From Candidatus Multivoradales bacterium (GTDB lineage: Bacteria; Acidobacteriota; Thermoanaerobaculia; Multivoradales; JAHEKO01), in contig CBDFIJ010000004.1 in NCBI GenBank assembly GCA_965248055.1, forward strand, positions 832,001 through 896,000: 64,000 nt of DNA, written 5' to 3'. How positions within the stretch are numbered: the stretch's first letter is position 1; each line of letters begins with the position of its first letter. The notes beneath the pieces were generated by a model. The model was not told where the DNA came from, did not search any database, and worked only from the letters and a program-made list of their open reading frames with translations. The translations under genes were made by a program, and so were the position numbers. Positions 2,854 to 30,564 of this stretch are shown one piece after another.

Positions 2854-5800
2854 TTACTCGCTGGCCGGAAACATTGCTAGATACTCACCTTGCAAGACCA
2901 AGCCGGCCCAGTAGTAGGGCGCCCGTTGCTCGCGCCACAAGGAGATCTGCGCCGCCCGTAGCGCCGCAGAAGGCGAAGAACCAACCACAAACAGCTCTCG
3001 ATAGAACCGCTCCATCAGCTCGGCCGTGCTCCGGTCTTCGACACTCCAGAGGCCTGCGACCACACGCTGGGCGCCTGCGTATGTCAATGCCCGGGTCATC
3101 CCCACCAAGCCTTCGCCTTTGACCTCTTTTCCCAACGCGGTGCGGCAGCCACTCAAGACAACCAGATCCGCCGACAGACGCAGATTGTAGAGTTCGTGAG
3201 CGCGCAGAAAACCATCCTGGTCTGCACCGCTACGGTCGACCAGGGAAAAGACGATGCCAGAGAGGCCAGGGCGGTTGGAGTCAAGGACCGCGTGGGTCGC
3301 TAGGTGGATGATTCGATAGTCGGCTAGCACACCATCCAAGACCAGTTTCTTGGTGGCCTCGAAATCGAATGCTTGAAAAGACGATCCTCTCGGCGCGATA
3401 GCCAAAATGGAGTTCGCCTCCCGACGCGAAAAAGGTAGCCGCTGGTATTCACCGGCACCGCTAACCTCGATCGGTCTGGTGCCTTGTGTCCGACTACGAG
3501 GGGCAGTTGCAGCTGAGACTCCATCCAGCCGTCGATCCGCCTGCGAAAAGACCGGATCAGCTATCACAGCGACGACTCCCTTAGGACGCGGCCGTCCTTC
3601 GGTCTCTTTGCGCTGGAGGGCGAGGGTCGACGCCGATGGTAGATAAGTTGTTTGGTTGGCCAGCAACAGAGGCCGGGCTGCCCAACACTGTCCGAGATCC
3701 CTCGGGTCGGCCAGGGCGCCAAACGGCAGATACTGGAGGGCGCCGTGGGCGACGATCACCAGTTGATTGTCTTTGAGGCGGTCGGCGATTGGCTGGACCA
3801 GGATCCGACTCAAGTCGCAGAGGGCATCCTGTACGGCTCGTCGAGCTTCCGGACGATGGCTGGTCGCCAGCAACCGATGGGTGCGCATTACCTTCCGTTC
3901 CAGTTCCTCCCTGCCGGGCAATTCGAAGCTGGAAAGAGAGTGCGGCGACACGAGAAAGAGGAAGCTGCGTTCAACGCCTAGCCAGTACTCGAGCAGGAGA
4001 GTCTCTTTGCCCAGGACCGATCCCCTTATTTCGTCAAGGGCGAGGGTCTGCGGTTGTGTTAGCGCGGCATAGTGGGGGCTTTTACGTCGTATCTTGGCTC
4101 GCAACTGGCCAAGCTCGTCGAGTAGCCGCCGTACTTCCCTTGTGGCCCCGGCGCGCTCTTCGTCACTCCGCCTTCGATCCTGATAGAGATTCAGGCGATA
4201 TCGCTCGGCGACATTGACCGCGTTCTGCAACTCCAGTTCGTGTTCGACCAAGCCGGGATCTACACCCGCGCGGACCTCCGCCCCAGACTCATCGAGCAGA
4301 TCCAACAGCCCACGCGCTCGAGCACGCTCGCTCGCCGCCAATGCTTTTGCATCGTGGCCAGCCGACGGCATCAGCCGGTGCAAATCCATCTGCAAGTCAA
4401 TGTAGAACTCAAAGTAGGGCTGCGCTCGGGCGAAGAAGGAGTGGCTCAGATCATCGCTAAAGCTCCTGGGCCGGACTGACTCCATGAGCTCAATAGCCGC
4501 CTCAACGGCCGTGACCGCCCCGGACAGCTCTCCGCGGCGCCTCTCGGACCCTGCCAATCCCAACAAACTCTCAGCTTCGCCAGTGAGATCCCCAACCTGC
4601 CGACAGAGCTTGAGTGACTGCGTGTACAACGAGAACGCTTCGTCGGGGTTGGTGAGGGCGCCTAAATTGCGCAGCAGGCGCGACTCCGCCACCGGCGACC
4701 AAGTGGCCCCTAAACGTAAGAGTTCGAGGGCTTTCCGGTACAAGTCCGCCGCCTCGCCCTGCTCGCCCAAAGCCTGTCGTAGCTCGCCTAGGCTGGTCAG
4801 GATCGCTACTTGCCCGCTGCTATGCCCGGTCTCGCGCCGTAACTCAAGCGCATCGTTGAAGTCCCGTTCCGCAGTTCCTAGATTGCCGAGTACGAGAAAC
4901 AGCCGGCCCCGCTGGTGGATCGAAGCTGCGCGGCCGTTGCTGTTGCCCAGTTTCGCCCAGGTTGCTTCCGCTTCGTTGAAGTGATCCAAGGCCGAATTGG
5001 TTTTCCCCATGGTCCTATAGAGCAGACCCATCTGGTGGAGGGTTCGTGCGCTGGCGGCGGGATTAGCACCGCTCTGCAACAGCCGCCGCGCTTCGCTGTA
5101 TTGTTCCAACGCGGCAGTAACTTGGTCGAGCGCTTGATACGTCTGAGCCAAGTTGACTAAAGTTGTTTCGCGCCAAGCACTTCGGTCTTCAGAAAGGAGT
5201 CCCAGCTGGCGCTGGAAAACTTCCAACGCTCCGCGCGCATCGCCAACCAGATAAAGAGACGTTCCCAATCCCTTGAGCGCGAGCCATTGCCCAGGAGTGT
5301 CACCCGCTTCCCGAAAGCATAGGTCACTTTCACGGTATTTTTCTATGGCTTCACGCCACCTGCCTAACCTCTTGGCGACGAAGCCAATGCGTTCCAGCGT
5401 CTCAGCCCGCCAAAAAACATCGTCCACTTCCCGCCATATTCCAAGCGCCCAGCGATAGCTTTCCTCGGCAGCATCGTAGTCACCTACTAGACTTAGTTCT
5501 TCGCCCCGCTCAACTGCCTTCGCCGCGTCAACCCGGGCCCGGTCTGAAGCCGTCGCTTTCCGCAAGTCGGCTACATTCACTTGGTAGATACCCTTACCTG
5601 GATTCTCGTTGAAGCTTCGCACTTCGATTTGATAAATGCCTTGCTGCACCACGAGTCCAAGCAGTGGCTCATACCCGTGACCTCCAATCGGACGGTCGAT
5701 ACTCCTCGCTACCGCCTCACCTCGTGGATCAAACAAAGTGGTGACCACGTCGATACCGCGCTGGTCAACGACCACCTCAATGAAGTGATCGGCCCTCAAG

Positions 5801-19628: not shown

Positions 19629-20346
19629 CTAGTACCAAATCGCCATCCTCAACCCCTTCGCATCCACCTCAGGATCTTCAGGCAGGGTCTTGGCTGTTCC
19701 TCGATAGATCCGCTCAGCACTCCACACGGCGATGTGGGCATCGATCAGGTCGTCCAGCGCGACCTCCTTTCGCAAGTACTTGCCATCGGCCTCATCATTC
19801 CACCACTGCCACCATCGCTCCCCCAGCAGCCTACGCAACAAAGCCAACCGTACCTCTCGTCCCGCCCGAGACTTCTTCTTCTCGACAATCGCACGATCGG
19901 CATTGGCAGCCCAGAATGAAACTTCGGGGTGCACTTCCTTGACCACGGACTGCAGCTCCGACGTCATCACTGCATCGACTTCTCGCAGCTTTGGAAATAT
20001 TGCCAGAATCTGCAGGGTGAGCCCCACGGGCCGGGTTGCATTCTTTGGCTTTCTTCTCCGATTTTGCCCAGATCGCTGAGCGGCAAGGTCTGGAGAACAC
20101 ACTGGTCATGCGCGGCCAGCCAAGCACCGCTCTCGCCGCCCGATCCACCGATGCCCCACCCTTCTGGGCTGCCTCAGGGAGCGCAATCGGAACATCCACC
20201 GCCACAACTTCTGGAGAACCTGGTAAATGCAAGAGATCCTCGAACCGCGGCACCCTCTGCAAGGCCCACTCTCCGCTGTCTAGATTCTTTGAAACGGCAA
20301 TCCAGCCTGACGGGCAACCGTCGACACCAGTTACCCAAAGCCCCAC
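19629..20346 (-). pseudogene. DUF429 (predicted RNase H-like nuclease), split by a frameshift near 20020-20040
   Basis: N-half GVDGCPSGW..VDVPIAL..DRAAR..SVFSRPCR in ORF 19831-20346; C-half PKLREVD..EVHPEVSF..DDLIDA..GLRMAIWY in ORF 19629-20102. Confidence 0.8.
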
Positions 20347-23300
20347 TAGCCGGCCTCCACGCTCAGACCTGCCTTGATCTCGGCCAGCTTGCCAAAGATT
20401 CCATCGATCACATTCTTTTTGTCGGCAAACAAAGCATCAGGGCCGCCGTCGTGCAGGTTGCTGAAGGGAGATTCGTAGAGAGCCGAAGCCTCCATGACCC
20501 CGCGAGCGGTTAGCTGATCGATCACCATCTCGACGAAACGGATCTGCTGGGGTGTCAGGCTGCGGTCGGCCAGGAAGCCGGAGAATGCGGCCTGAGCCGC
20601 GGAACGGTCCAGCCCCACCAGGTGGCGAACAAAGTGGACTAGCGAAGGTGCCTCGTTGCGAGCCAGTAAGCCTGAAAGCAGCGTCTGGCCATCCTCCTCA
20701 CCGATCTCGGCCAGCGTGTCTTCCAACCCCTGCAAATCGGCCACAGTGAGAGGCTGGTTGGTCCGAAGGCGGCGGATAACGATGTGGTCGAGGTGATTTC
20801 GCAGATACTCCCTGACCTTCTTCTCGTACTGCGCACCGGTCATCTTGGGCATGTACACAACTTCGTTTTCGCGCACCCCCATCACCTGGTCTTGGAAGTC
20901 GGTGTAAACGATCTTGCGCTTTTTCTTGTCTAGGAAAGGTACCAATTCACGCAACCGTAGGCGTAGATCCTCAAGGCTCTTCAGATCGATCCCTTGCCAA
21001 AAACTGCTCTCCTGCATCGCAGTCAAGTAGGCCAATTGAGCCTTAACCGCTGGAATGGTGTTCTTCTCTTCCAGCAGCATGGCGATCTCGACCATCCGCT
21101 GACGCTGGCTCTCTAAAACCGCCGCGGCACCTTCCGCTAGAGCGAGTTGCATGCGCAATGCGGTGAGATCGAACATGCGCGACTCCAGCTCATCGCTCTC
21201 AACTTCAGTCGGTAGCCGCGCGATCTCACCCTGCAACTTCTCACGGTCGTCATCACTGAGTTGTTCCCAAGCCTTGCGCTCTCGGAAGCGATTCACCGGC
21301 TCCAGATGCATGCGCACGATGAAGTTGTCCCGGTTCATGGCCGCCACTTCCCCGTGTAATCCGCTGGCAAGCGATGCCCTGAGTGCAGAATCCGGGTCCA
21401 ACTCCGGCATCGCCTGAATATGGGACAGCAACTGCACTCGAGAGCGGAACAGCCGAGTGCCCAACGGTACGCCGCTACTAGCCTCGATGCCGGGCGGGTG
21501 CTCATTGAAGAAATCGAAATTGAAGCAAAAGTCGAAGACTCGGAAGTCCTGCTTGTCTTCATCCGGCCCAAATAAATCGGGGCACAAGCGTGTACCGCGC
21601 CCGATCATCTGCCAGAACTTGATCTTCGAGTAGACCGGTTTAAAGAACACCAGATTTGCCACCTCTGGCACATCGATGCCGGTGTCGAGCATGTCGACTG
21701 AAATTGCGATGTGCGGAGCCTTTTCTTTCTGAGAAAAATCGTCAAGCAGGCTCTGCGGATACTTAGCGTAGTGGTCGATGATGCGGGCAAAGTGGCCCTT
21801 GTACTGCGGGTAGTGGTGGTTGAACCGCTGCTCGATGAACTTGGCGTGCTCGTGGTTACGGGCAAACAGAATCGTCTTGGCCAGCCGATCGCCGCCTTCG
21901 ACCTTATGCCCGTGTTCCATCAGGTGCTGTAGCACCTTGTCTACGGTGTCCTTGTTGAACAGCCAACTGTTGATGGCGGCAGCGTTCACTCGCTCCGGTA
22001 CGCCGTGCTCATCCGCATCGTCGCCCCAGTCGAGGCCTTCCCACTGCTCCTTCTCCTCGTCGCTCAGCGAGTCGTAATCGATGCCTTCATGAGGAAACTT
22101 CAAATCCACCTGCTGCACTCGCGGCGGCACCAAGAAGCCATCCGCCACCGCAGTCTCCAACTCATAGGCGTCGGTCGGCACCCCTGGCTCCAGATCAAAC
22201 AGGGTGTAGGTGTTTTTTTCCACCTGCTCCCTTGGCGTTGCCGTCAAGCCCACCAGCAACGAGTCAAAGTAGCTGAAGATCGCACCATATCTCTGGTACA
22301 CCGAACGATGAGCCTCGTCGATAATCACCAGGTCGAAATGTCCTACGCTGAAGCGGGCCTCATCGCTTCCTCGATGGGAAATGGTTTCGTCGATCAGCCC
22401 CATCATGGTCGGATAGGTAGATATATAGACCCGGCCCGTCTGATCCTTCTCGGTCACCAAGTTCACCGGGCTCGACTCCGGTAGATGGGTCTTGAAGGCG
22501 CTTACCGCTTGATTCACCAGAGCCACCCGATCGGCCAAAAACAACGCCCGCTTCACCCAACCCGCCCGCTGCAGAACGTCCACTAGCGCAACCGAGGTAC
22601 GGGTCTTGCCGGTACCGGTGGCCATCACCAACAGTGCCTTGCGCCGTGCTTGGGCGAACTGGCCCCCAATGCTGCCGATAGCCCGTTTCTGATAGTAGCG
22701 ATCGACGATCTCGTCCTTAACCTGGCCCACATCCAGCGGCTTCCGCTGGGTTCGGCGCAGGATCACAGCTGCCAGCTCACCTTTCTTATAGAACCCGGCA
22801 GCGGTGCGGGGCGGGTAGAGCAGGTCATCCCAGATCCAAGTCTGATAGCCGTTGGTGTAAAAAATCACTGGACGTTGACCGTGCATCGCCTCCAGGCAAT
22901 CGGCGTAGAGCTTGGCCTGCTGCTGCCCCACCTGCGGGTCGACGGTGGTCTTCTTGGCCTCCACCACCGCCAGTGGCTTACCGTCGTCACCCCACAGGAC
23001 GTAGTCGGCATACCCGATGCCCGAGTCGTTCGGCATGCCCTTGACCTCGTATTCGCGGTCATACGGCTTATCGAGCGGCCAGCCGGCTCGCTTCAGGGCG
23101 AGGTCGATAATGAGCTCGCGAGTCTTGTCCTCGTTCCAATCGTGAGTGTCGGGGACCGCCTGGTTCTCCGCCTTGAACGCCGCTAGCCGTTCGCGCAGCG
23201 CCTCCAACTCGCTCTCAACTTCCTTGCGCGCCTCTTCCGCCACATCCAGCTTCTTCTTGAGCGCGTCCAGTGCCTCGACGCTGGCGGGCTTAGCTTGCAG

Positions 23301-23753
23301 CTCCGTTTTCGGCACCAATGCTTCGTCGAAGGTCTTCCCTTGCAGGCTCACCGCTCCTTGGCGTAGATAGGAGCGCCCCGCCCAATAGCTGACGTGGTAC
23401 AGCTCCCGCACAATCTCAAGTGCCTTCTCGGCCGTGGGCATTTTCTTGCCGTGCACCGCCACGTTGCCCGCCTGTCGGATGTACTCGGCCTTCTGCCACA
23501 CCACCTCCGGCACCAGCTCCTGGAAGGCGGGTTCCTGGAGGTAACCATCCAAGTTGGTAACCCTCGGCGGGCTCAGTGTGCTGTCAACCCGGTAGATCCG
23601 GGCCAACAAGCGTTCCAGCGCGTGCCGGGAATGGAAGCACGAGGCCCGCGGGTCGCCGTATACCTGCCGCTCGGCGTAACTCGCGCTCTCCGCCGCGTGC
23701 GGGAACTCCTGCTTCAGAAAGGCGAAGTTCGACGTTGAGTCGATACCGGTCAC
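20346..23753 (-). CDS. hsdR: Type I restriction enzyme R subunit (EcoAI/EcoEI-like, DUF4145-like N-terminus)
   Basis: ADYVLW..VEAKK nuclease motif, [30 protein letters not shown]. Confidence 0.95.
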
Positions 23754-24874
23754 ACCCGCACCAGCTCCATCAATGGCTCGAATCGATAGACCGCCGAGCG
23801 CCGTCCGGATGCCTCCCGCACTGTGTGCAGCAAGCCCTCTTGCAGCAGCCCGCGGGTAAACCGGCCCGCGGTCGCGACGGGTATCCCGGCCTCGCTGGTG
23901 AACCGGCTGTTACTAAACACCGGCCAGGTGAACAGATAGTCCAACGCCGCGATGGAATGCTTGGAGGCCAACAGATCCGCAAAGCGAGCCTTCATCTCCT
24001 GGTAGCAAGCGCGAATCTCCTGAGCGACTTTCAGGTTGTGGACTGCTTGCTCCTCCACAGCGGTCAGAAAGAAGCTACACCACTCCTGCCAGTCGCCGCG
24101 CTCCGACACCCGGCGCAAACGGTCAATGTAGTCATCCTTGTGGTCCTCGAAGTATCGGCTGATATAGAAATGCGGTGCGGAAATCGCTCCACCGTTCCAC
24201 AGCATTAACGTGATCAACATCCTCCCAAGCCGGCCATTGCCGTCCTTGAAAGGGTGCAGCGCCTCGAACTCGGCGTGCGCCAGGGCAGTCCGCATCAAGA
24301 TTGGGACACTGTCATCTCCAATCAACCGAAACAAAGCCTGCATTCCAGCTTCTAGGTGCTCCGGGGCAATGGGTACGAAGCTGGCCTCGCGACCACCTCG
24401 GGCACCAATGTAGTTCTGCTCCTCCTTGTAGGCGCCCGGCGACTTGCTCGCACCGCGGCCGAACGAAAGGAGGTGCTGGTGGATGCTCTTGATAAGGGAC
24501 TCCGACAGCGGACGGCCTTCTTCGAGTTGCTTGTGGGCTGCACTCAAAGCTCGCCGGTATAGCGCTGTTTCGAGGACCTCGGAGCGGAAACCCCTCGCCG
24601 CACCCTCCCCATCGTCGCCGTACTCCGCCTCCAGTTGAAGGATTTCGTCCATCGTGCTGACGGTGCCTTCCATGCGCGAAGAGACCACGGCCTCCTGGCT
24701 GCGCATCGGGGCCAGAAAGAATTCGCTGTTGTGCATCCCTTGGAGCATTTGGTCGTAGCGAGCCAACGCCTCAGTGGCGGCCAGTAAGCCCGGCAGCAAG
24801 CGCCCAGGATCGAGCTCAGAGGGTGGAAACTGTCCAATGTGGTAGTGCACTGCGTTGCTGATATCAATAGTCAC
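23750..24874 (-). CDS. Fic family protein with C-terminal HTH, embedded between hsdS and hsdR
   Basis: EAVVSSRMEG, HPFKDGNGRLGR; GTGA overlap with hsdR; RBS GAGGAG. Confidence 0.93.
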   Translation of the reverse strand: MTIDISNAVHYHIGQFPPSELDPGRLLPGLLAATEALARYDQMLQGMHNSEFFLAPMRSQEAVVSSRMEGTVSTMDEILQLEAEYGDDGEGAARGFRSEVLETALYRRALSAAHKQLEEGRPLSESLIKSIHQHLLSFGRGASKSPGAYKEEQNYIGARGGREASFVPIAPEHLEAGMQALFRLIGDDSVPILMRTALAHAEFEALHPFKDGNGRLGRMLITLMLWNGGAISAPHFYISRYFEDHKDDYIDRLRRVSERGDWQEWCSFFLTAVEEQAVHNLKVAQEIRACYQEMKARFADLLASKHSIAALDYLFTWPVFSNSRFTSEAGIPVATAGRFTRGLLQEGLLHTVREASGRRSAVYRFEPLMELVRV

Positions 24875-24901
24875 GGGACCGGCTCCTCACCGAATTTTAC
24901 T

Positions 24902-25005
24902 TTGTTGATCATTTTAGTCGAAATTTGATCAACAAAACAACTGGACCTGCACGGATGAACAACAACGTGACTTGTTGCTCACGAACTCGACGATTTGATC
25001 AACAA
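24902..25005. promoter_or_regulatory. Five TGA[T/A/G]CAACAA motifs including two inverted pairs with 14-bp spacers
   Basis: TTGTTGATCA 24902, TGATCAACAA 24926, TGAACAACAA 24956, TTGTTGCTCA 24972, TGATCAACAA 24996. Confidence 0.75.
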
Positions 25006-25148
25006 CGGACTTTGTTCGCCTCAGACGAGCGACAACCCCGCACCCTCACCGTTGCCAGCGTAAACACCGCGATCATCGACAGGACAGGCCATAGGCTGAC
25101 ACAACAGAAATTCTTCGCCGTGACCACTCCGCCGCCCACCGGCGAAAA

Positions 25149-26321
25149 CTAGAGCTCGCCCTGAAAGGCGCTGGATTGCAGCGAGGCAAAGAGCGTGTCG
25201 AGTTCGGCGAGGTGGGCGCGTTGGCTGGTCTTCTGTTGCTCGATGGAGTCGACGATATCGGCGAAGCGACGTTGGCGTTCTAGCGGGGGCAGAGGGATCG
25301 GGAGCTTTCGCAGATCTCGTACATTGAGGTGCTTTGATGTGGAACCCGTCATCAACCGACCTAGACGTTCCGGCGCTAGGTCGTGAACCAGAAGGCGCAG
25401 CAGGAATTTTGGATGCAACTTCGACTCGATCGTCCGAAGCTGGACGAGCCGCTGCCCCATGCATACGCGCATGCCTTCGGCCACCAGAGCTAGGACACCG
25501 ACTGTGCCTTCACGACTGAGGACGATGTCATCTGGGAGGATCTCGCTCCGCTTCGTGCGCTCCCTATAGTCGTCCTCCGTAACGAACCGAGTGTCGGTCC
25601 AGATCCACTCTCCCTTACCGAGATTCGACGTCCGCAGACAGATCACCCCCGCGTCGCTCCAGCGCGGAGTCGAGTGGGGGCAGTCGACCACCTTCTCGCA
25701 GACTTCCTCCAGACAGGGCTTCTCCCACCCCATCGGATTGGTGACAGGGTCGCCGAACAAGTCGAGGAAGGTGGATTGGAGCAGGGTGTCGAGCTGGGCG
25801 AGGGACTCGCGGCGCTTGGCCCGCAATCTGTCAGCCTGATCCAGAATCCCCGCAATCCGCTTCTGCTCGGCGAGGGGCGGGAGGGGGATTGCTGACGCCT
25901 TGACTTTGGCATCAGACACAGCCGGATAGTTCGCTCCAGTCGCCACGTCGACCATTCGCTGCACGAAGACGCCAGTCCTGACCCAGTGAAACAGGTACAT
26001 CGAGTCGAGTTCGTCGTCCTTGGGTCGAAGGACGCAGTAGCCCGTCGATGCGGTCATTCCACGCTGGGCACCATTGACGAGAGCGACACCGTTGAGGTTC
26101 GGGCGAACAGTCGCAACAAGAACGTCGCCTGTCTCTACGAGCTGCCTTGCTCTACTGGGCGCCTTGGAACACTCGTAACATTGGATAGTCACGATGGCCT
26201 TGGCGTCCTTGTCCACCGAACTCAGATCTATGTAGTCGAAGCTGCCGGAGCCAGTAGTCCGTGGATTCCAGGTATTGCACTTGTCGACGAGGTCGCCGAT
26301 GGGCTGCTCTTGCCACATCAT
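25149..26321 (-). CDS. hsdS: Type I R-M specificity subunit
   Basis: Two TRDs and conserved regions IPLPPLAEQKRIA..LFGDP..NPMGW and IPLPPLERQRRF..AFQGEL. Confidence 0.95.
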   Translation of the reverse strand: MMWQEQPIGDLVDKCNTWNPRTTGSGSFDYIDLSSVDKDAKAIVTIQCYECSKAPSRARQLVETGDVLVATVRPNLNGVALVNGAQRGMTASTGYCVLRPKDDELDSMYLFHWVRTGVFVQRMVDVATGANYPAVSDAKVKASAIPLPPLAEQKRIAGILDQADRLRAKRRESLAQLDTLLQSTFLDLFGDPVTNPMGWEKPCLEEVCEKVVDCPHSTPRWSDAGVICLRTSNLGKGEWIWTDTRFVTEDDYRERTKRSEILPDDIVLSREGTVGVLALVAEGMRVCMGQRLVQLRTIESKLHPKFLLRLLVHDLAPERLGRLMTGSTSKHLNVRDLRKLPIPLPPLERQRRFADIVDSIEQQKTSQRAHLAELDTLFASLQSSAFQGEL

Positions 26322-26410
26322 CCCAGCATCCCCTCCAACTCCTCACGCCCCTTCGCGATCTCCTCCTCCAGTTCCGCCAGCCGCTCAGCATTCCGATTTC
26401 TGCCTTCCAT
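26318..26410 (-). CDS. 30-aa mini-ORF duplicating the HsdM C-terminal helix
   Basis: MEGRNRNAERLAELEEEIAKGREELEGMLG versus HsdM ..ERLAELEKEIAKERENLAEMLE; purine-rich AGGGGTGAG before ATG; ATGA overlap with hsdS. Confidence 0.55.
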   Translation of the reverse strand: MEGRNRNAERLAELEEEIAKGREELEGMLG

Positions 26411-26423
26411 GCTCACCCCTGCA

Positions 26424-26620
26424 ACCGGCTCGCTTTCCGTCTGAAATCGGCTCAATTCAATGCTGCTCGCTTCAAGAAATCGCCTTCTATGGGCGCCGAC
26501 TCGATTGGTAACCGACACAGAATCAGCAAGTTCTGCCAGCGGTCGCCCTAGGATCGTCGGCATCGGCTCACGGTTGACGAATCGGATCATAATCGGCTCA
26601 AAACGGCTCGGTGAGCCGAT
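26424..26620. repeat. Array of ATCGGCTCA-like 9-mers at the 3' end of the DUF4062-wHTH gene
   Basis: Exact copies at 26446, 26562, 26592, inverted at 26612; variants at 26424, 26581, 26602. Confidence 0.7.
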
Positions 26621-28118
26621 AATGAGTGGATCTTCCCGCACCTACTTTGGTCAAGGTTCCCTCCTCAACCAGGCCAGCCAGCAGACGCTTGGCCGTGGCA
26701 CTAGCCATGCCCAGGCGCTGGACGCAAACCTTGGTGGAAATCGTTCCAACAGCCCGGACCTCCGCCAGAACCGCTTCCCTGGGAGGGAGTTGGTGTTCTT
26801 CGCCAACGGCGGAGGCCCCACTTCGCTTCTTGGGCGATGCTTTCTTATCAGTCGCTGAGGGGCGGAGTTCAACCACCAGGCAGTCGTGATCGATGCTGAA
26901 GATGGGTTTGGGGTGACCGAACTGTTCCAGCAAGCGGACCATACGCGGGATGCCGCTGCCGCGCTCGTCCATCAACTCAAACCAGGACAGGCCCTGCACC
27001 AAAAGAGGATTTCGGGCACGCGATCGGGCTTGCCCGCGAGCCAAGCGCTCGAGCGACTGCCCCCCGGGGGGATGGCCGGGACTGCTGACCAGAAGGCGGT
27101 CAGCAAATAGTTCAATGCCGATTTTGGCACCCGCGTCCCCGTAGTCGCGATGGGCCACGGCATTGACCACTACCTCGCGCAAGACCTCCTGGGGATAGGT
27201 CTCGGTATTGACCCGCTTCAAGCCTTTGACGATCAGTGGCTTCGCGGAGTTGCGCCTGATGAACGCCACGGCGCTCTCGATTACCTGTGGCAGCGGAAGG
27301 CTCAGAATCTCTGAATCCAGGGCATCCCGGTGGCGATCGATTCCGGGAAAAGCATCCATCTGCACCCGCGCCTGAGGCAAGACGACGCCTGGGTTGCGGG
27401 CCAGCAGTAAAGCACCGGCTGTGGTGGGGCGTAGAGTGTCCCCGTCTTTCCACAAGTAACTGCGCGATAGCAGCAGCCGGTCAAGTTCACCCGGATCGAT
27501 CTGATCTTGGTCTTGGTCTTCGGCACTGGCCATCATCTCTAAAGCTAGCCCCGTGTCCAACTGGTCATAACTGAGAAGATGCAGAGGCTCCTTTTCAAAC
27601 GGAGCGGCGGAACGTCGATTCCGGTCCGCCTGTTCAAGCTGCGCGCGCCGAGGCTCAATGGAAAAAGTCTGCTCGATGTGTTCGCGGAGTCGTTTGCCAA
27701 TCGCTTCGAGCAAACTCTCTCCATCGTCGAAACGACTGTAAGTGTGACCGTGGTTTTTGATTTCCTCAAAGAACTGGCGCGCCTTCTTCTCTCGATCCGC
27801 ATCTTTCCCTTTGACGCAAACCAGCGTGGGCATCTGCAGTTCCTGGGCGAGACGATACTCTTCGTGGGTAGCGGACAGTCCGTCACCAGCGTCCGACCCA
27901 TACTTTTCGCCGAGGATCAGGAGATAGAGCTGGCATCGGCGAAGCAGGTGAAGGTAAGCCTTCGGGTTCGGGCGCAAGGGCGACGGATAGTCCTCGAAGA
28001 TTCTGGGCGCAGTGCAATCGCGCAGAAAATCTTCGGTCGAAAGGAAGCTCCCGGTGGCGATCCGTTCCGAGCGTAGCTCTTTTTGCACCGAGCTGATAAA
28101 TACCTTGAGGCGAATCAC
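26598..28118 (-). CDS. DUF4062 domain + RecG C-terminal-like (HATPase_c_4) domain + wHTH protein
   Basis: KVFISSVQKEL..ILGEKYG..SATHEEY (DUF4062); YP..LREVVVNAVAHRDY..SPG..RNPLL..ERGSGI; C-terminal HTH; GTGA overlap with hsdM. Confidence 0.85.
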   Translation of the reverse strand: MIRLKVFISSVQKELRSERIATGSFLSTEDFLRDCTAPRIFEDYPSPLRPNPKAYLHLLRRCQLYLLILGEKYGSDAGDGLSATHEEYRLAQELQMPTLVCVKGKDADREKKARQFFEEIKNHGHTYSRFDDGESLLEAIGKRLREHIEQTFSIEPRRAQLEQADRNRRSAAPFEKEPLHLLSYDQLDTGLALEMMASAEDQDQDQIDPGELDRLLLSRSYLWKDGDTLRPTTAGALLLARNPGVVLPQARVQMDAFPGIDRHRDALDSEILSLPLPQVIESAVAFIRRNSAKPLIVKGLKRVNTETYPQEVLREVVVNAVAHRDYGDAGAKIGIELFADRLLVSSPGHPPGGQSLERLARGQARSRARNPLLVQGLSWFELMDERGSGIPRMVRLLEQFGHPKPIFSIDHDCLVVELRPSATDKKASPKKRSGASAVGEEHQLPPREAVLAEVRAVGTISTKVCVQRLGMASATAKRLLAGLVEEGTLTKVGAGRSTHYRLTEPF

Positions 28119-29611
28119 TCCAGCATCTCCGCCAGGTTCTCACGCTCTTTCGCGATCTCTTTCTCCAACTCCGCTAGCCGTTCCAGGATCAGCTTCGGCG
28201 GGTCGTATTCCACCGCCTCGTAAACCACTTCTTTATAACGGTTGATGGAAAGGTCATAGTCGTTGTCCGCGATCTCGGCTTTGGGTACCAGGAAGCTCTG
28301 GTCTGTCCGCTCGCGATCAGCCTCGCCGTCACGGTTCTGCCAACGAACGAGAATGTCCGCAAGGTCACTCTTGTCCGGCTGCGGGGTGCGCTTGTCGTCA
28401 AGAGAATAGCCGTCAGCTTGCATCTCGTAGAACCAGACGTCGTCGGTTCCGCCCCCTCGGGGATGGTCTAGGGGACTGGTCTTAGTGAACAGCAGGATGG
28501 CGGTGGAAACTCCGGCGTAAGGCTTAAAGACGCCTGAGGGCATGGAGATAATGGCGTCGAGCTTCTGGTCCTCGACCAGAATCTTGCGGAGGGTCTTGTG
28601 CGCCTTGCTGGACCCAAACAGCACCCCGTCGGGCACGATGACGGCGGCGCGGCCGCCGGTTTGGAGTTGGCGCAGAAACAAGGCGAGAAAGAGCAGTTCG
28701 GTTTTCTTGGTTTTGACGATCTGTTGCAAGTCTTTGGCGGTGGATTCGTAGTCGAGGCTGCCAGCGAAGGGCGGATTGGCGAGGACCAGCGAGTAGTTTT
28801 CCCGATCATCGTCTTCTGCTTGAGCCAGGGAGTCCCGGTAACGGATGTCCGGATTCTCCACCCCGTGCAGCAACATATTCATGCTGCCGATGCGCAGCAT
28901 GGTGTTGTCGAAGTCGTAGCCGTGGAACGTGCCCGCGTTGAAGCGACGGCGGGCCTTTGCGTCTTTGTAGATCGTGTCGCTGTGGTGCTCGCGCAGGTAT
29001 TCCGAGGCGGCCACCAGGAAGCCGGCCGTGCCGCAGGCCGGGTCGCAGATCACGTCCTTGGGTGTGGGCGCGGTCATCTCCACCATCAGCTTAATAATGT
29101 GGCGCGGGGTGCGGAACTGCCCGTTCTGTCCGGCCGTGGCGATCTTGCCGAGCATGTACTCATAGAGGTCGCCCTTGGTGTCGCTGTCAGACATGTCGAT
29201 GCTGTCGAGCTGGTCGACCACGTTGGCGAGCACCCGGGCCGTCGGCATCATGAAGAGGGCGTCCTTCATGTGGTGCGTGTAGGTCGAGTCTTCCTTGCCG
29301 TCTCCGTTGTTCCCCAGTGACTTCATGAACGGGAATACCTGGTCGCGCACGGTCTCAAACATCGGCTCCGGGGCCTCCTCTTTGAAACGCGACCAGCGCA
29401 AAGGCTCCTGATCCTCTGAGAACAACGGATCCTCGATCGGCTTGCCGGTTCGTGCCGCCTTGTCTTCCTTGCGCGTATGCAGCTCGTCCAGCCGCTTGAT
29501 GAAGAGTAGGTAGGTCAACTGCTCAATCACCGACAGCGGGTTGGAGATGCCGCCGGACCACATCGTGTCCCAGATTCGGTCGACTTTGGATTTCAGTTCA
29601 CCGGTGATCAT
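28115..29611 (-). CDS. hsdM: Type I R-M N6-adenine methyltransferase M subunit
   Basis: MITGELKSKVD start, GQFRTPRHII, DPACGTAGFL, LANPPF, YDLSINRY. Confidence 0.96.
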   Translation of the reverse strand: MITGELKSKVDRIWDTMWSGGISNPLSVIEQLTYLLFIKRLDELHTRKEDKAARTGKPIEDPLFSEDQEPLRWSRFKEEAPEPMFETVRDQVFPFMKSLGNNGDGKEDSTYTHHMKDALFMMPTARVLANVVDQLDSIDMSDSDTKGDLYEYMLGKIATAGQNGQFRTPRHIIKLMVEMTAPTPKDVICDPACGTAGFLVAASEYLREHHSDTIYKDAKARRRFNAGTFHGYDFDNTMLRIGSMNMLLHGVENPDIRYRDSLAQAEDDDRENYSLVLANPPFAGSLDYESTAKDLQQIVKTKKTELLFLALFLRQLQTGGRAAVIVPDGVLFGSSKAHKTLRKILVEDQKLDAIISMPSGVFKPYAGVSTAILLFTKTSPLDHPRGGGTDDVWFYEMQADGYSLDDKRTPQPDKSDLADILVRWQNRDGEADRERTDQSFLVPKAEIADNDYDLSINRYKEVVYEAVEYDPPKLILERLAELEKEIAKERENLAEMLE

Positions 29612-29697
29612 TAGTTGTTCCTTGTGGTCTCGGTGGCAGATTTAGGTACTTCGGTGATCGGTTGTGCTCTTCGTCCTCGTTCACGAAAACCCGGGAC

Positions 29698-30564
29698 TCA
29701 CTCTTCCGCTTCGCGTTGCTGATGCTCCTTGAGCGACATACCCTCCGCGTCCTTCCATTCGGTACGGCCATTCGCGTTACGTCCAAGGACCATGCAAGCC
29801 GCCAATGATGGCGAGGAGAATTCATGATCAGCGGTGAAGCGCAACGTATCACCCTCCAGCACCATCACGCGGTCTTCTATCAACCGCTCGCGGACGTTAT
29901 AGAGCCCCGGTGAATGTTCCTTGAAGGATGGCACGGTTGTTGGTCGTGCCTTGCTACCCGCGAAGACGACGAAGCCTGAGGCGGTCTCGGCTCCCTTACC
30001 ATCCCATTGTTTTCCCTTGAGAAAGTAGGAGCGCTTACCGGGTATGGTCTCTCCAGAACGTTCAAATGCGTTGACACCTAGCACCGGTAGCAGCGGGAGC
30101 ATCTCAGCCAAGTAGCCTTCGACCTGAGCTTCGTCCGGTTCCGAGAGTCCTGGCCTTTGCGGCCTATTGGCATTATCCAATCGGCAACGTTTGGCCTCCG
30201 TCGCCAACTCCACCAGCCGAGCTTCCAGGTATTGCACCTCCGCCTTGTTCAGCGGATCCCCCTTGGTAGTGAAGGCGACTGCAAGTTGCCAGAAGTCTTT
30301 GTTGGCGTGGTGGCTATCGAGTCGGGTGCGTAGAGTCTCAGCTTCGCCGACGTAGATAGTGGGTCGTTGCTCATCGCCCTCGTGCCCCATGAGGATGTAG
30401 ACGCCACTGTTCTGGAACTCAGGTCGCTTCTTCACCTCAGGATAGCGGCCCCGGGGGCAAACAATCCCCTGCCCCACCCAATTTGATTTCTCGACGAACC
30501 GTAACCCGTCGGGGATGCCCTCGGCGACAAAGATGCGGATGTTAAAGGGTCGAGGGTTGCTCAT
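29698..30564 (-). CDS. GIY-YIG nuclease family protein with C-terminal DUF4357
   Basis: SGVYIL..IYVGEAE..RL..H..KDFW..YLE; FSSPSLAA..VLGRNANGRTEWK. Confidence 0.88.
   Translation of the reverse strand: MSNPRPFNIRIFVAEGIPDGLRFVEKSNWVGQGIVCPRGRYPEVKKRPEFQNSGVYILMGHEGDEQRPTIYVGEAETLRTRLDSHHANKDFWQLAVAFTTKGDPLNKAEVQYLEARLVELATEAKRCRLDNANRPQRPGLSEPDEAQVEGYLAEMLPLLPVLGVNAFERSGETIPGKRSYFLKGKQWDGKGAETASGFVVFAGSKARPTTVPSFKEHSPGLYNVRERLIEDRVMVLEGDTLRFTADHEFSSPSLAACMVLGRNANGRTEWKDAEGMSLKEHQQREAEE

Follow-up and report, generated by a model that had tools for sequence, protein, structure and literature searches.

How can a gene be inserted between two genes whose reading frames overlap without breaking either of them? 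The question is raised by a type I restriction-modification (R-M) locus of a Candidatus Multivoradales bacterium from the Acidobacteriota, situated in the 64,000-nucleotide (nt) stretch analyzed here (positions 832,001 to 896,000 of contig CBDFIJ010000004.1, assembly GCA_965248055.1; in the following called the window, with positions counted from its first letter). The R-M set is complete, comprising HsdM, an HsdS with two target-recognition domains, and HsdR, all encoded by intact open reading frames (ORFs), and the genes follow each other on the minus strand in the order hsdM, an embedded cargo gene, an orphan copy of the hsdM end, hsdS, a SoFic gene and hsdR. The methyltransferase subunit gene hsdM (28115-29611, minus strand, 498 amino acids) is recognized by Pfam N6_Mtase (1.5e-64) and HsdM_N (1e-17) and by PADLOC MTase_I (1.7e-195 over residues 1-498). 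It is followed by the cargo gene (26598-28118, minus strand), which encodes a protein of 506 amino acids composed of DUF4062 (Pfam 3.7e-17, residues 5-91), HATPase_c_4 (4.5e-20) and a C-terminal winged helix (DIP2311-like_C, 8.5e-8). The specificity subunit gene hsdS (25149-26321, minus strand, 390 amino acids) shows Pfam Methylase_S in two stretches and PADLOC Specificity_I (1e-79 over residues 4-390). A spacer of 277 nt separates cargo and hsdS, and its final 69 nt are a repeat of the 69 nt that end hsdM.

The functional copy of the repeat (28115-28183, minus strand) consists of the last 22 codons and the stop of hsdM and encodes ERLAELEKEIAKERENLAEMLE; the orphan copy (26318-26386, minus strand) encodes ERLAELEEEIAKGREELEGMLG, likewise followed by a stop, and includes, 8 nt ahead of the hsdS ATG, the motif GGAGGGG. 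The preliminary description of this DNA had claimed a gap-free direct repeat with 54 of 69 identical nt ending in both cases in a 4-nt stop/start overlap, and all of this, including both encoded peptides, was borne out. The hsdM stop overlaps the GTG start of the cargo gene (GTGA, 28115-28118), which fits the consensus MIRLKVFISS of the cargo-family alignment, and the TGA of the orphan overlaps the ATG of hsdS (ATGA, 26318-26321). The repeat can be extended to 55 of 70 nt (79%; 26317-26386 and 28114-28183) and is the top repeat of the region, and among the 30 nt flanking the copies on either side just 10 match. When the hsdM 3' end was aligned locally with the DNA downstream, a score of 65 was obtained, far beyond 200 shuffles (mean 20.1, standard deviation 2.2, maximum 29).

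The close relatives of hsdM reveal which of the two copies is the native one. A metagenome scan with HsdM yielded 80 loci, 67 of them usable, with an identifiable hsdS in 62; in 59 of the latter hsdS starts at position -3 from the hsdM stop, i.e., 4 nt inside hsdM. One of the scanned loci, L147, has hsdS in the usual overlap with hsdM, but about 120 nt of A+T-rich DNA (about 3020-3140) interrupt its hsdS. The native tails of the relatives resemble LERLAELEEEIAKGREELEGMLG. The orphan of the window reaches 60 of 69 nt (87%) and 20 of 23 amino acids identity with tails of cargo-less relatives, the functional tail at most 57 of 69 nt and 18 amino acids. Compared with the consensus of 40 relatives, the orphan differs at only 4 of 66 nt, fewer than any native tail (minimum 6, mean 14.3), and shows no amino-acid change from the usual tail of its sub-clade, whereas the functional copy differs at 15 of 66 nt, as is typical of native tails. 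Because the orphan is closer to the tails of the relatives than the functional copy, it is, judged by these alignments, the original, canonical hsdM 3' end. The assumption that the downstream copy represents the displaced end of hsdM is hence upheld. Its companion, namely that the cargo brings a replacement hsdM tail, could not be verified: the functional tail is no closer to those of the cargo-bearing loci L028 and L036 (47 and 44 of 69 nt) than to those of cargo-less ones (up to 57), and sliding identity against 17 relatives detected no recombination breakpoint in the hsdM of the window. The nearest cargo relatives, which are 71-73% identical, stand outside this tail comparison. In an HsdM tree built without the tail, cargo-bearing loci are scattered and the window is nested among cargo-less ones.

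A chance likeness of two coiled-coil coding stretches rich in Glu, Leu and Ala might be considered for such low-complexity sequence in a G+C-rich genome. However, the alignment score is more than twice the shuffle maximum, the repeat is the strongest of the region, the copy sits exactly at the position of the hsdM end of relatives with 87% identity to their tails, and the pattern recurs in 21 other loci, as described below. An accidental origin is thus refuted for practical purposes.

We assign a probability of about two in three to the explanation that the orphan is an insertion scar which keeps the initiation region of hsdS together with a relay ORF. Because hsdS starts 4 nt inside hsdM, the last hsdM codons would double as ribosome-binding site and start codon region of hsdS, and an insertion between the two genes that leaves both intact would require this junction stretch in two copies. 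One copy would complete HsdM, the other would remain joined to hsdS. The orphan would persist since its last approximately 20 nt are the initiation region of hsdS, a relay frame would be kept open that begins at the stop of the embedded gene or close to it and ends on the hsdS start, and ribosomes would be passed along from hsdM to the cargo, the relay ORF and finally hsdS. The upstream part of the orphan would represent a young scar that decays over time.

The pattern is not confined to this one locus. Within the cargo family, which was represented by 313 homologues, an alignment-based contig scan led to 79 loci; the contig scan using the single cargo protein had found nothing, and no close cargo homologue was found among relatives of the genome. 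The test set comprised the 44 loci in which the cargo was complete and the ORF upstream ended no more than 40 nt away, and the last 30 amino acids of that ORF served as query. A downstream tail copy was detected in 7 of these 44 loci with z of 8.6-16.5, compared with z of at most 2.2 in the other 37; in L095 a tail copy was not found. All seven have the arrangement hsdM-cargo-hsdS, and they belong to two hsdM lineages that are about 25% identical, the first comprising the window, L028 and L059 and the second L050, L051, L053 and L067. In L051 and L053 extra genes occur between orphan and hsdS, a KilA-N-like ORF in the former and a RhuM-family gene in the latter, and in the bridge of L053 the fragment VEFLGIWET of an L051-type ORF is joined to the tail. 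This composition points to repeated rearrangements of the slot.

Outside the window, the genome contains a second type I locus (G000:C4:541678-545950), which belongs to the other hsdM lineage and also carries an orphan (z 8.9). Its hsdM is frameshifted with a stop at 543227, followed by a split, distant DUF4062 cargo and an intact-looking hsdS; an ORF of 39 amino acids (544587-544706) has ARETDKALSEILEKIGI as its end and shares an ATGA overlap with the cargo stop on one side and with the hsdS start on the other. A partial copy of this second locus, 4.3 kb long and 97.8% identical, lies near C4:3.29 Mb.

Orphan tails were also encountered with unrelated cargos. In L159 the cargo is a DUF433/DUF5615 toxin-antitoxin pair and the orphan is a nearly identical one of 43 amino acids; in L181 (the same as L182) a UPF0175 toxin-antitoxin-like pair is accompanied by an orphan of 114 amino acids from the hsdM C-terminus. 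This 114-residue fragment (L181, 6719-7465) forms an in-frame fusion with what is left of the second cargo ORF and ends on the hsdS start. Furthermore, a survey of the phylum was performed with PF12161 (HsdM_N), which matched 133 of 301 genomes; 100 stretches among the matches listed were taken, of which 98 were usable. Among these 98 hsdM loci a tail copy appeared with z of at least 8.1 in 10 and with z of 4.4-5.0 in three, two of which were accepted; the third, L248 (z 5.0), was rejected as an orphan because the match falls inside an ORF of 563 codons. The cargos of the survey loci include AlbA_2-HATPase_c_4-winged helix proteins, Fic, ORF6N, DUF1016/YhcG, NYN, an RNA-ligase domain, DUF2442 and DUF4258, and the ORF following the orphan was Methylase_S in 7 of 9 loci tested. 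When the loci were classified with an uncurated in-house Methylase_S profile on ORFs of at least 170 amino acids, orphans occurred in 11 of the 55 loci whose hsdM and hsdS are separated by a gap, in none of the 29 with adjacent genes and in 1 of 13 without a detected HsdS. For these HsdS calls a domain-only profile replaced an iterative phmmer search, which risked drift through a DUF559 insert. In total, 22 orphan-bearing loci with several hsdM lineages and more than ten cargo types were collected; orphan tails are thus not rare. In addition, L246 (G275:C1:780965-788465, about 1959-2063) shows a tandem duplication of the hsdM tail: a second tail, not separated from hsdM by any gene, follows 14 nt behind the hsdM stop, has two Leu-to-Pro changes and overlaps the GTG of hsdS. 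It could be either an empty slot or the remnant after loss of a cargo.

The proposed relay function depends on the frame that connects cargo and hsdS. In the window it is open from 26641 and spans the entire gap; it gives rise to a bridging ORF of 90 amino acids (26318-26590, minus strand) whose ATG follows the cargo TGA at a distance of 8 nt without overlapping it, which contains the orphan tail at its end and whose TGA overlaps the hsdS ATG. The preliminary description had assigned to the orphan a mini-ORF of 30 amino acids with its own ATG. This ATG (26410-26408) and the corresponding internal frame (26318-26410, minus strand) do exist; however, the ORF is probably longer, because the earlier ATG at 26590-26588 leads to the 90 amino acids, which match no Pfam family. 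Across the 211-nt spacer part the orphan frame is open (chance in shuffles 0.042) and the other two frames are closed.

In 18 of the 22 orphan loci, no stop interrupts the orphan frame between the tail and the end of the preceding ORF, which was defined mechanically by the last stop of any frame open for at least 70 codons. The start codon overlaps the preceding stop by 4 nt in 8 loci, and in 16 the next long ORF begins in overlap with the orphan stop. For the first seven loci, the spacer frame was open in five compared with 1.17 expected (Poisson-binomial P 0.0009, with some of the loci being related). Both the overlap with the next ORF and the open frame fit a role in initiation or coupling, which supports the earlier suggestion that the tail is kept for hsdS translation. 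The position of the start varies from -40 to +8, in a few loci further, and its kind is variable as well. A conserved frameshift that joins the cargo and orphan frames was considered but discarded, since the offset between the two frames varies from locus to locus.

These counts also bear on a purely neutral interpretation, in which the orphan is merely a recent scar, hsdS is translated from its own ribosome site with only the start region being maintained, and the open frames are coincidental or a by-product of repeat motifs. It would agree with the restriction of orphans to 11 of 55 interrupted loci, with the existence of a decay series, with the missing coding signature of the bridge, with L050, which works without a bridge, and with the young appearance of the window copy. 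Nevertheless, we regard it as rather unlikely, because 18 of 22 frames are open to the preceding stop with an exact 4-nt overlap in 8, because five of seven frames were open in the initial set and because most spacers are closed in both other frames.

Several observations weigh against the insertion-scar and relay explanation. The G+C content at third codon positions of the bridge is 0.54, compared with 0.66-0.80 in the neighboring genes, i.e., it has no coding signature, and the mechanically defined preceding ORF behind the count of 18 in 22 may be spurious in G+C-rich DNA. L050 combines an intact hsdS and an orphan with the lack of any open bridging frame. Among the 55 interrupted loci, 44 are without a detectable orphan as far as the uncurated HsdS profile and the limit of 170 amino acids can tell, therefore hsdS can be expressed without one. 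A constraint on the initiation region only is also not visible in the identity of orphans with functional tails, although both copies change. Compared with their own functional tails, the orphans reach the identity peak at residues -16 to -9 (0.73), and identity amounts to 0.57 in the last eight. Finally, the near-perfect conservation of 66 nt in the window orphan is not explained by an initiation region of 20 nt; it would need recency or another constraint.

Another explanation assigns a role to the peptide itself. According to this alternative, the bridging ORF or the inner 30-residue ORF produces a small protein whose HsdM-tail helix binds the HsdS coiled coil and tunes assembly of the complex, and the peptide is under selection. 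A fold model placed the 30-residue peptide on residues 155-187 of HsdS, its central conserved helix, with a score of 0.73 compared with 0.00 for the best of three controls; of the solved complexes 51 of 78 attained the mark applied, of the mismatched pairs 2 of 108, the runs agreed in at least 97% of the contacts and the partner had a predicted local distance difference test (pLDDT) value of at least 85. This docking agrees with the M.EcoKI model, whose published account places HsdM's C-terminal region on the HsdS coiled coil in the text available (PMC2647291). It may reflect, however, the likeness to solved type I complexes, and docking of a peptide is a matter of likeness, not of expression. 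Further points in favor are the unchanged amino acids of the window orphan relative to its sub-clade and the pooled ratio of nonsynonymous to synonymous changes (pN/pS), which amounts to 0.28 for the four orphans of the second lineage and to 0.29 for their functional tails (13 codons, with the pairs being non-independent). Moreover, some product is likely made, because start codons overlap the preceding stop in 8 of 22 loci.

On the other side, other orphans contain helix-breaking changes (Leu to Pro in L246 and L264, Ala to Gly in L284), some of them are degraded in the 5' half or down to 13-20 nt, position and kind of the start codon are not conserved, and the 44 interrupted loci mentioned above lack a detectable orphan. 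The low pN/pS might be inherited from a past as working tail or result from conversion, and orthology among the orphans is not apparent from the identity matrices. Hence, the peptide role suggested in the preliminary description has the modelled docking on its side and start variation, helix-breaking substitutions, decay and frequent absence against it, and we consider it improbable. The same degree of doubt applies to a more far-reaching scenario, in which the cargo slot is bracketed by two hsdM tails, a relay protein binds HsdS and ties HsdS supply and methyltransferase assembly to cargo expression, and cargo is swapped or shed between related loci with the tails as portable homology arms.

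The insertion-scar explanation predicts a gradual loss of the upstream orphan part, and corresponding stages were observed. In L028 the 5' half of the orphan is degraded and hsdS looks broken. In L029 and L036 only 13-20 nt are left, which hold the ribosome site and the start, with a 1-nt deletion in L036. By comparison, the nearly pristine copy of the window points to a recent event. Alternatively, the tail might have been refreshed by recombination with related loci, with the tail copies and the hsd genes on either side as homology arms through which cargo is exchanged or lost. Turnover of the cargo is indicated by the second locus of the genome, which shows 80-82% nucleotide identity with L067 and L050 through hsdM to its end and again continues from the orphan into hsdS, whereas its cargo has no nucleotide homology with theirs and is 34% identical as a protein. 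Because the flanks are so similar while the cargos share no DNA homology, these alignments suggest an exchange of cargo between conserved flanks.

The idea that recombination between the tail copies would excise the cargo cleanly is possible in principle. In the window, however, such an excision appears unlikely, because the longest identical run between the two copies is 11 nt. No excised form was present in the Logan contigs of the only sample containing the locus (four runs of one study), possibly the source of the window itself. Three of these contigs aligned to the stretch over their full length without a joint, and one did not align; since contigs drop rare variants, they are silent on rare excision.

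The region behind the cargo contains an additional feature. Seven 9-nt repeats (GAGCCGATT, at most one mismatch), six of them on the minus strand, occur at 26423-26621, and this array starts over the cargo stop codon. Seven of the 22 matches to GAGCCGATT in the window fall within these 200 nt. Like arrays after the cargo stop are common in related loci: three or more copies were present in 55 of 60 loci compared with 35 of 226 control windows, four or more in 34 of 60 compared with 3 of 226. They consist, also in the loci L028-L106, of direct repeats of 9-11 nt beginning at the stop codon of the DUF4062-HATPase_c_4-winged helix gene, typically at offsets of -1, +10 and +31, a set that is often repeated, and their motif varies by lineage (GAGCCGAT, GAGGCGAT, AATCGTCCGAT and AATCATCCGAT). 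The repeats probably represent binding sites for the cargo's own winged helix. A term search in the available text of three DUF4062 preprints, cited below, found nothing on such arrays.

Pfam and PADLOC detected no integrase or recombinase in the insert, only the single gene with DUF4062, HATPase_c_4 and winged helix, and the cargo has only weak PADLOC matches, to Argonaute-associated proteins. A promoter and terminator scan of 25900-29900 gave no more hits than shuffles and none in the spacer, and the spacer has no Rfam match up to an E-value of 1 and a fold z-score of 0.73. A second embedded gene is located between hsdS and hsdR; it encodes a SoFic-like Fic/DOC protein (23750-24874, minus strand; Pfam Fic and Fic_N, PADLOC SoFic 7.5e-102), and its stop overlaps the start of hsdR by 4 nt. 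The latter (20346-23753, minus strand) encodes the restriction subunit of 1135 amino acids (Pfam ResIII, EcoEI_R_C and Helicase_C, PADLOC REase_I 1e-173). Beside the Fic insertion no copy of the hsdS tail was found (test score 24, shuffle maximum 29). In the gap between hsdS and the Fic gene (24875-25148), a palindrome of the TTGATCAA type (GTTGTTGATCAAAT and similar) occurs three times, and this gap is likely an operator or promoter region of the SoFic gene. Just upstream of hsdM, a gene for a GIY-YIG and DUF4357 protein is situated at 29698-30564 on the minus strand.

Genomic islands inserted in transfer RNA (tRNA) or transfer-messenger RNA (tmRNA) genes bring a replacement 3' end, and the displaced end remains as direct repeat. 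The window resembles such islands in that the insert lies between direct repeats of the 3' end of the target, one completing the gene and the other being displaced. Different from these islands, the insert has no integrase, the repeat length varies by event from 13 nt to 114 codons, and the displaced hsdM tail has a likely job for the next gene.

With regard to coupling, the hsdM and hsdS genes of EcoKI have been described in the consulted part of Roer et al. (2012, PMC3510504) as overlapping and translationally coupled, and the same type of hsdM-end/hsdS-start junction is kept before hsdS of the window. The upstream partner differs: it is a 90-codon frame with the spare hsdM tail, another gene follows behind hsdM, and the coupling in the window is a prediction. 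Defense genes embedded in type I R-M operons are represented by TgvAB on VPI-2 of Vibrio cholerae (PMC11411939) and by DarTG2 on the RRDM island of enteropathogenic Escherichia coli (EPEC), where the embedded genes lie between hsdS and hsdR (PMC12255303). The operon of the window is similar in carrying extra defense genes, in this case two, the DUF4062 protein and SoFic. In their available text, neither the TgvAB account (PMC11411939) nor the DarTG2 account (PMC12255303) mentions a duplicated hsdM end, and the Fic gene of the window, which occupies the DarTG2-like position between hsdS and hsdR, is also without such a duplication. DUF4062 has been introduced as a TIR-like NADase defense domain in the accessible parts of three preprints on Swarozyc, Evangelion and NIR (bioRxiv 10.64898/2026.05.01.722283, 10.64898/2026.06.25.731849 and 10.64898/2026.09.04.749371). 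The cargo shares with these systems, as far as those parts describe them, an N-terminal DUF4062 and a variable C-terminal part, here HATPase_c_4 plus winged helix; given that this comparison is by domain, a NADase role of the cargo is predicted. By term search of the same text, HATPase, methyltransferase and Schlafen are mentioned in none of the three preprints, restriction is absent from two, and the third refers to restriction-modification in passing in its introduction only. Literature searches found no paper on a duplicated hsdM end. Embedded defense genes in R-M operons are known; an insertion between overlapping, coupled genes without breaking either is, as far as these searches show, undescribed.

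The orphan tail represents a simple, searchable footprint of insertion that occurs in about one in ten hsdM loci of a blind sample. Its decay state dates insertions, and it points to the turnover of cargos between conserved flanks. Moreover, relay ORFs as a means of preserving translational coupling can be tested on the orphan loci. If it were true that a tail-bearing product binds HsdS in the cells, it would represent a new kind of built-in restriction regulator, and each embedded defense gene would come with its own built-in modulator.

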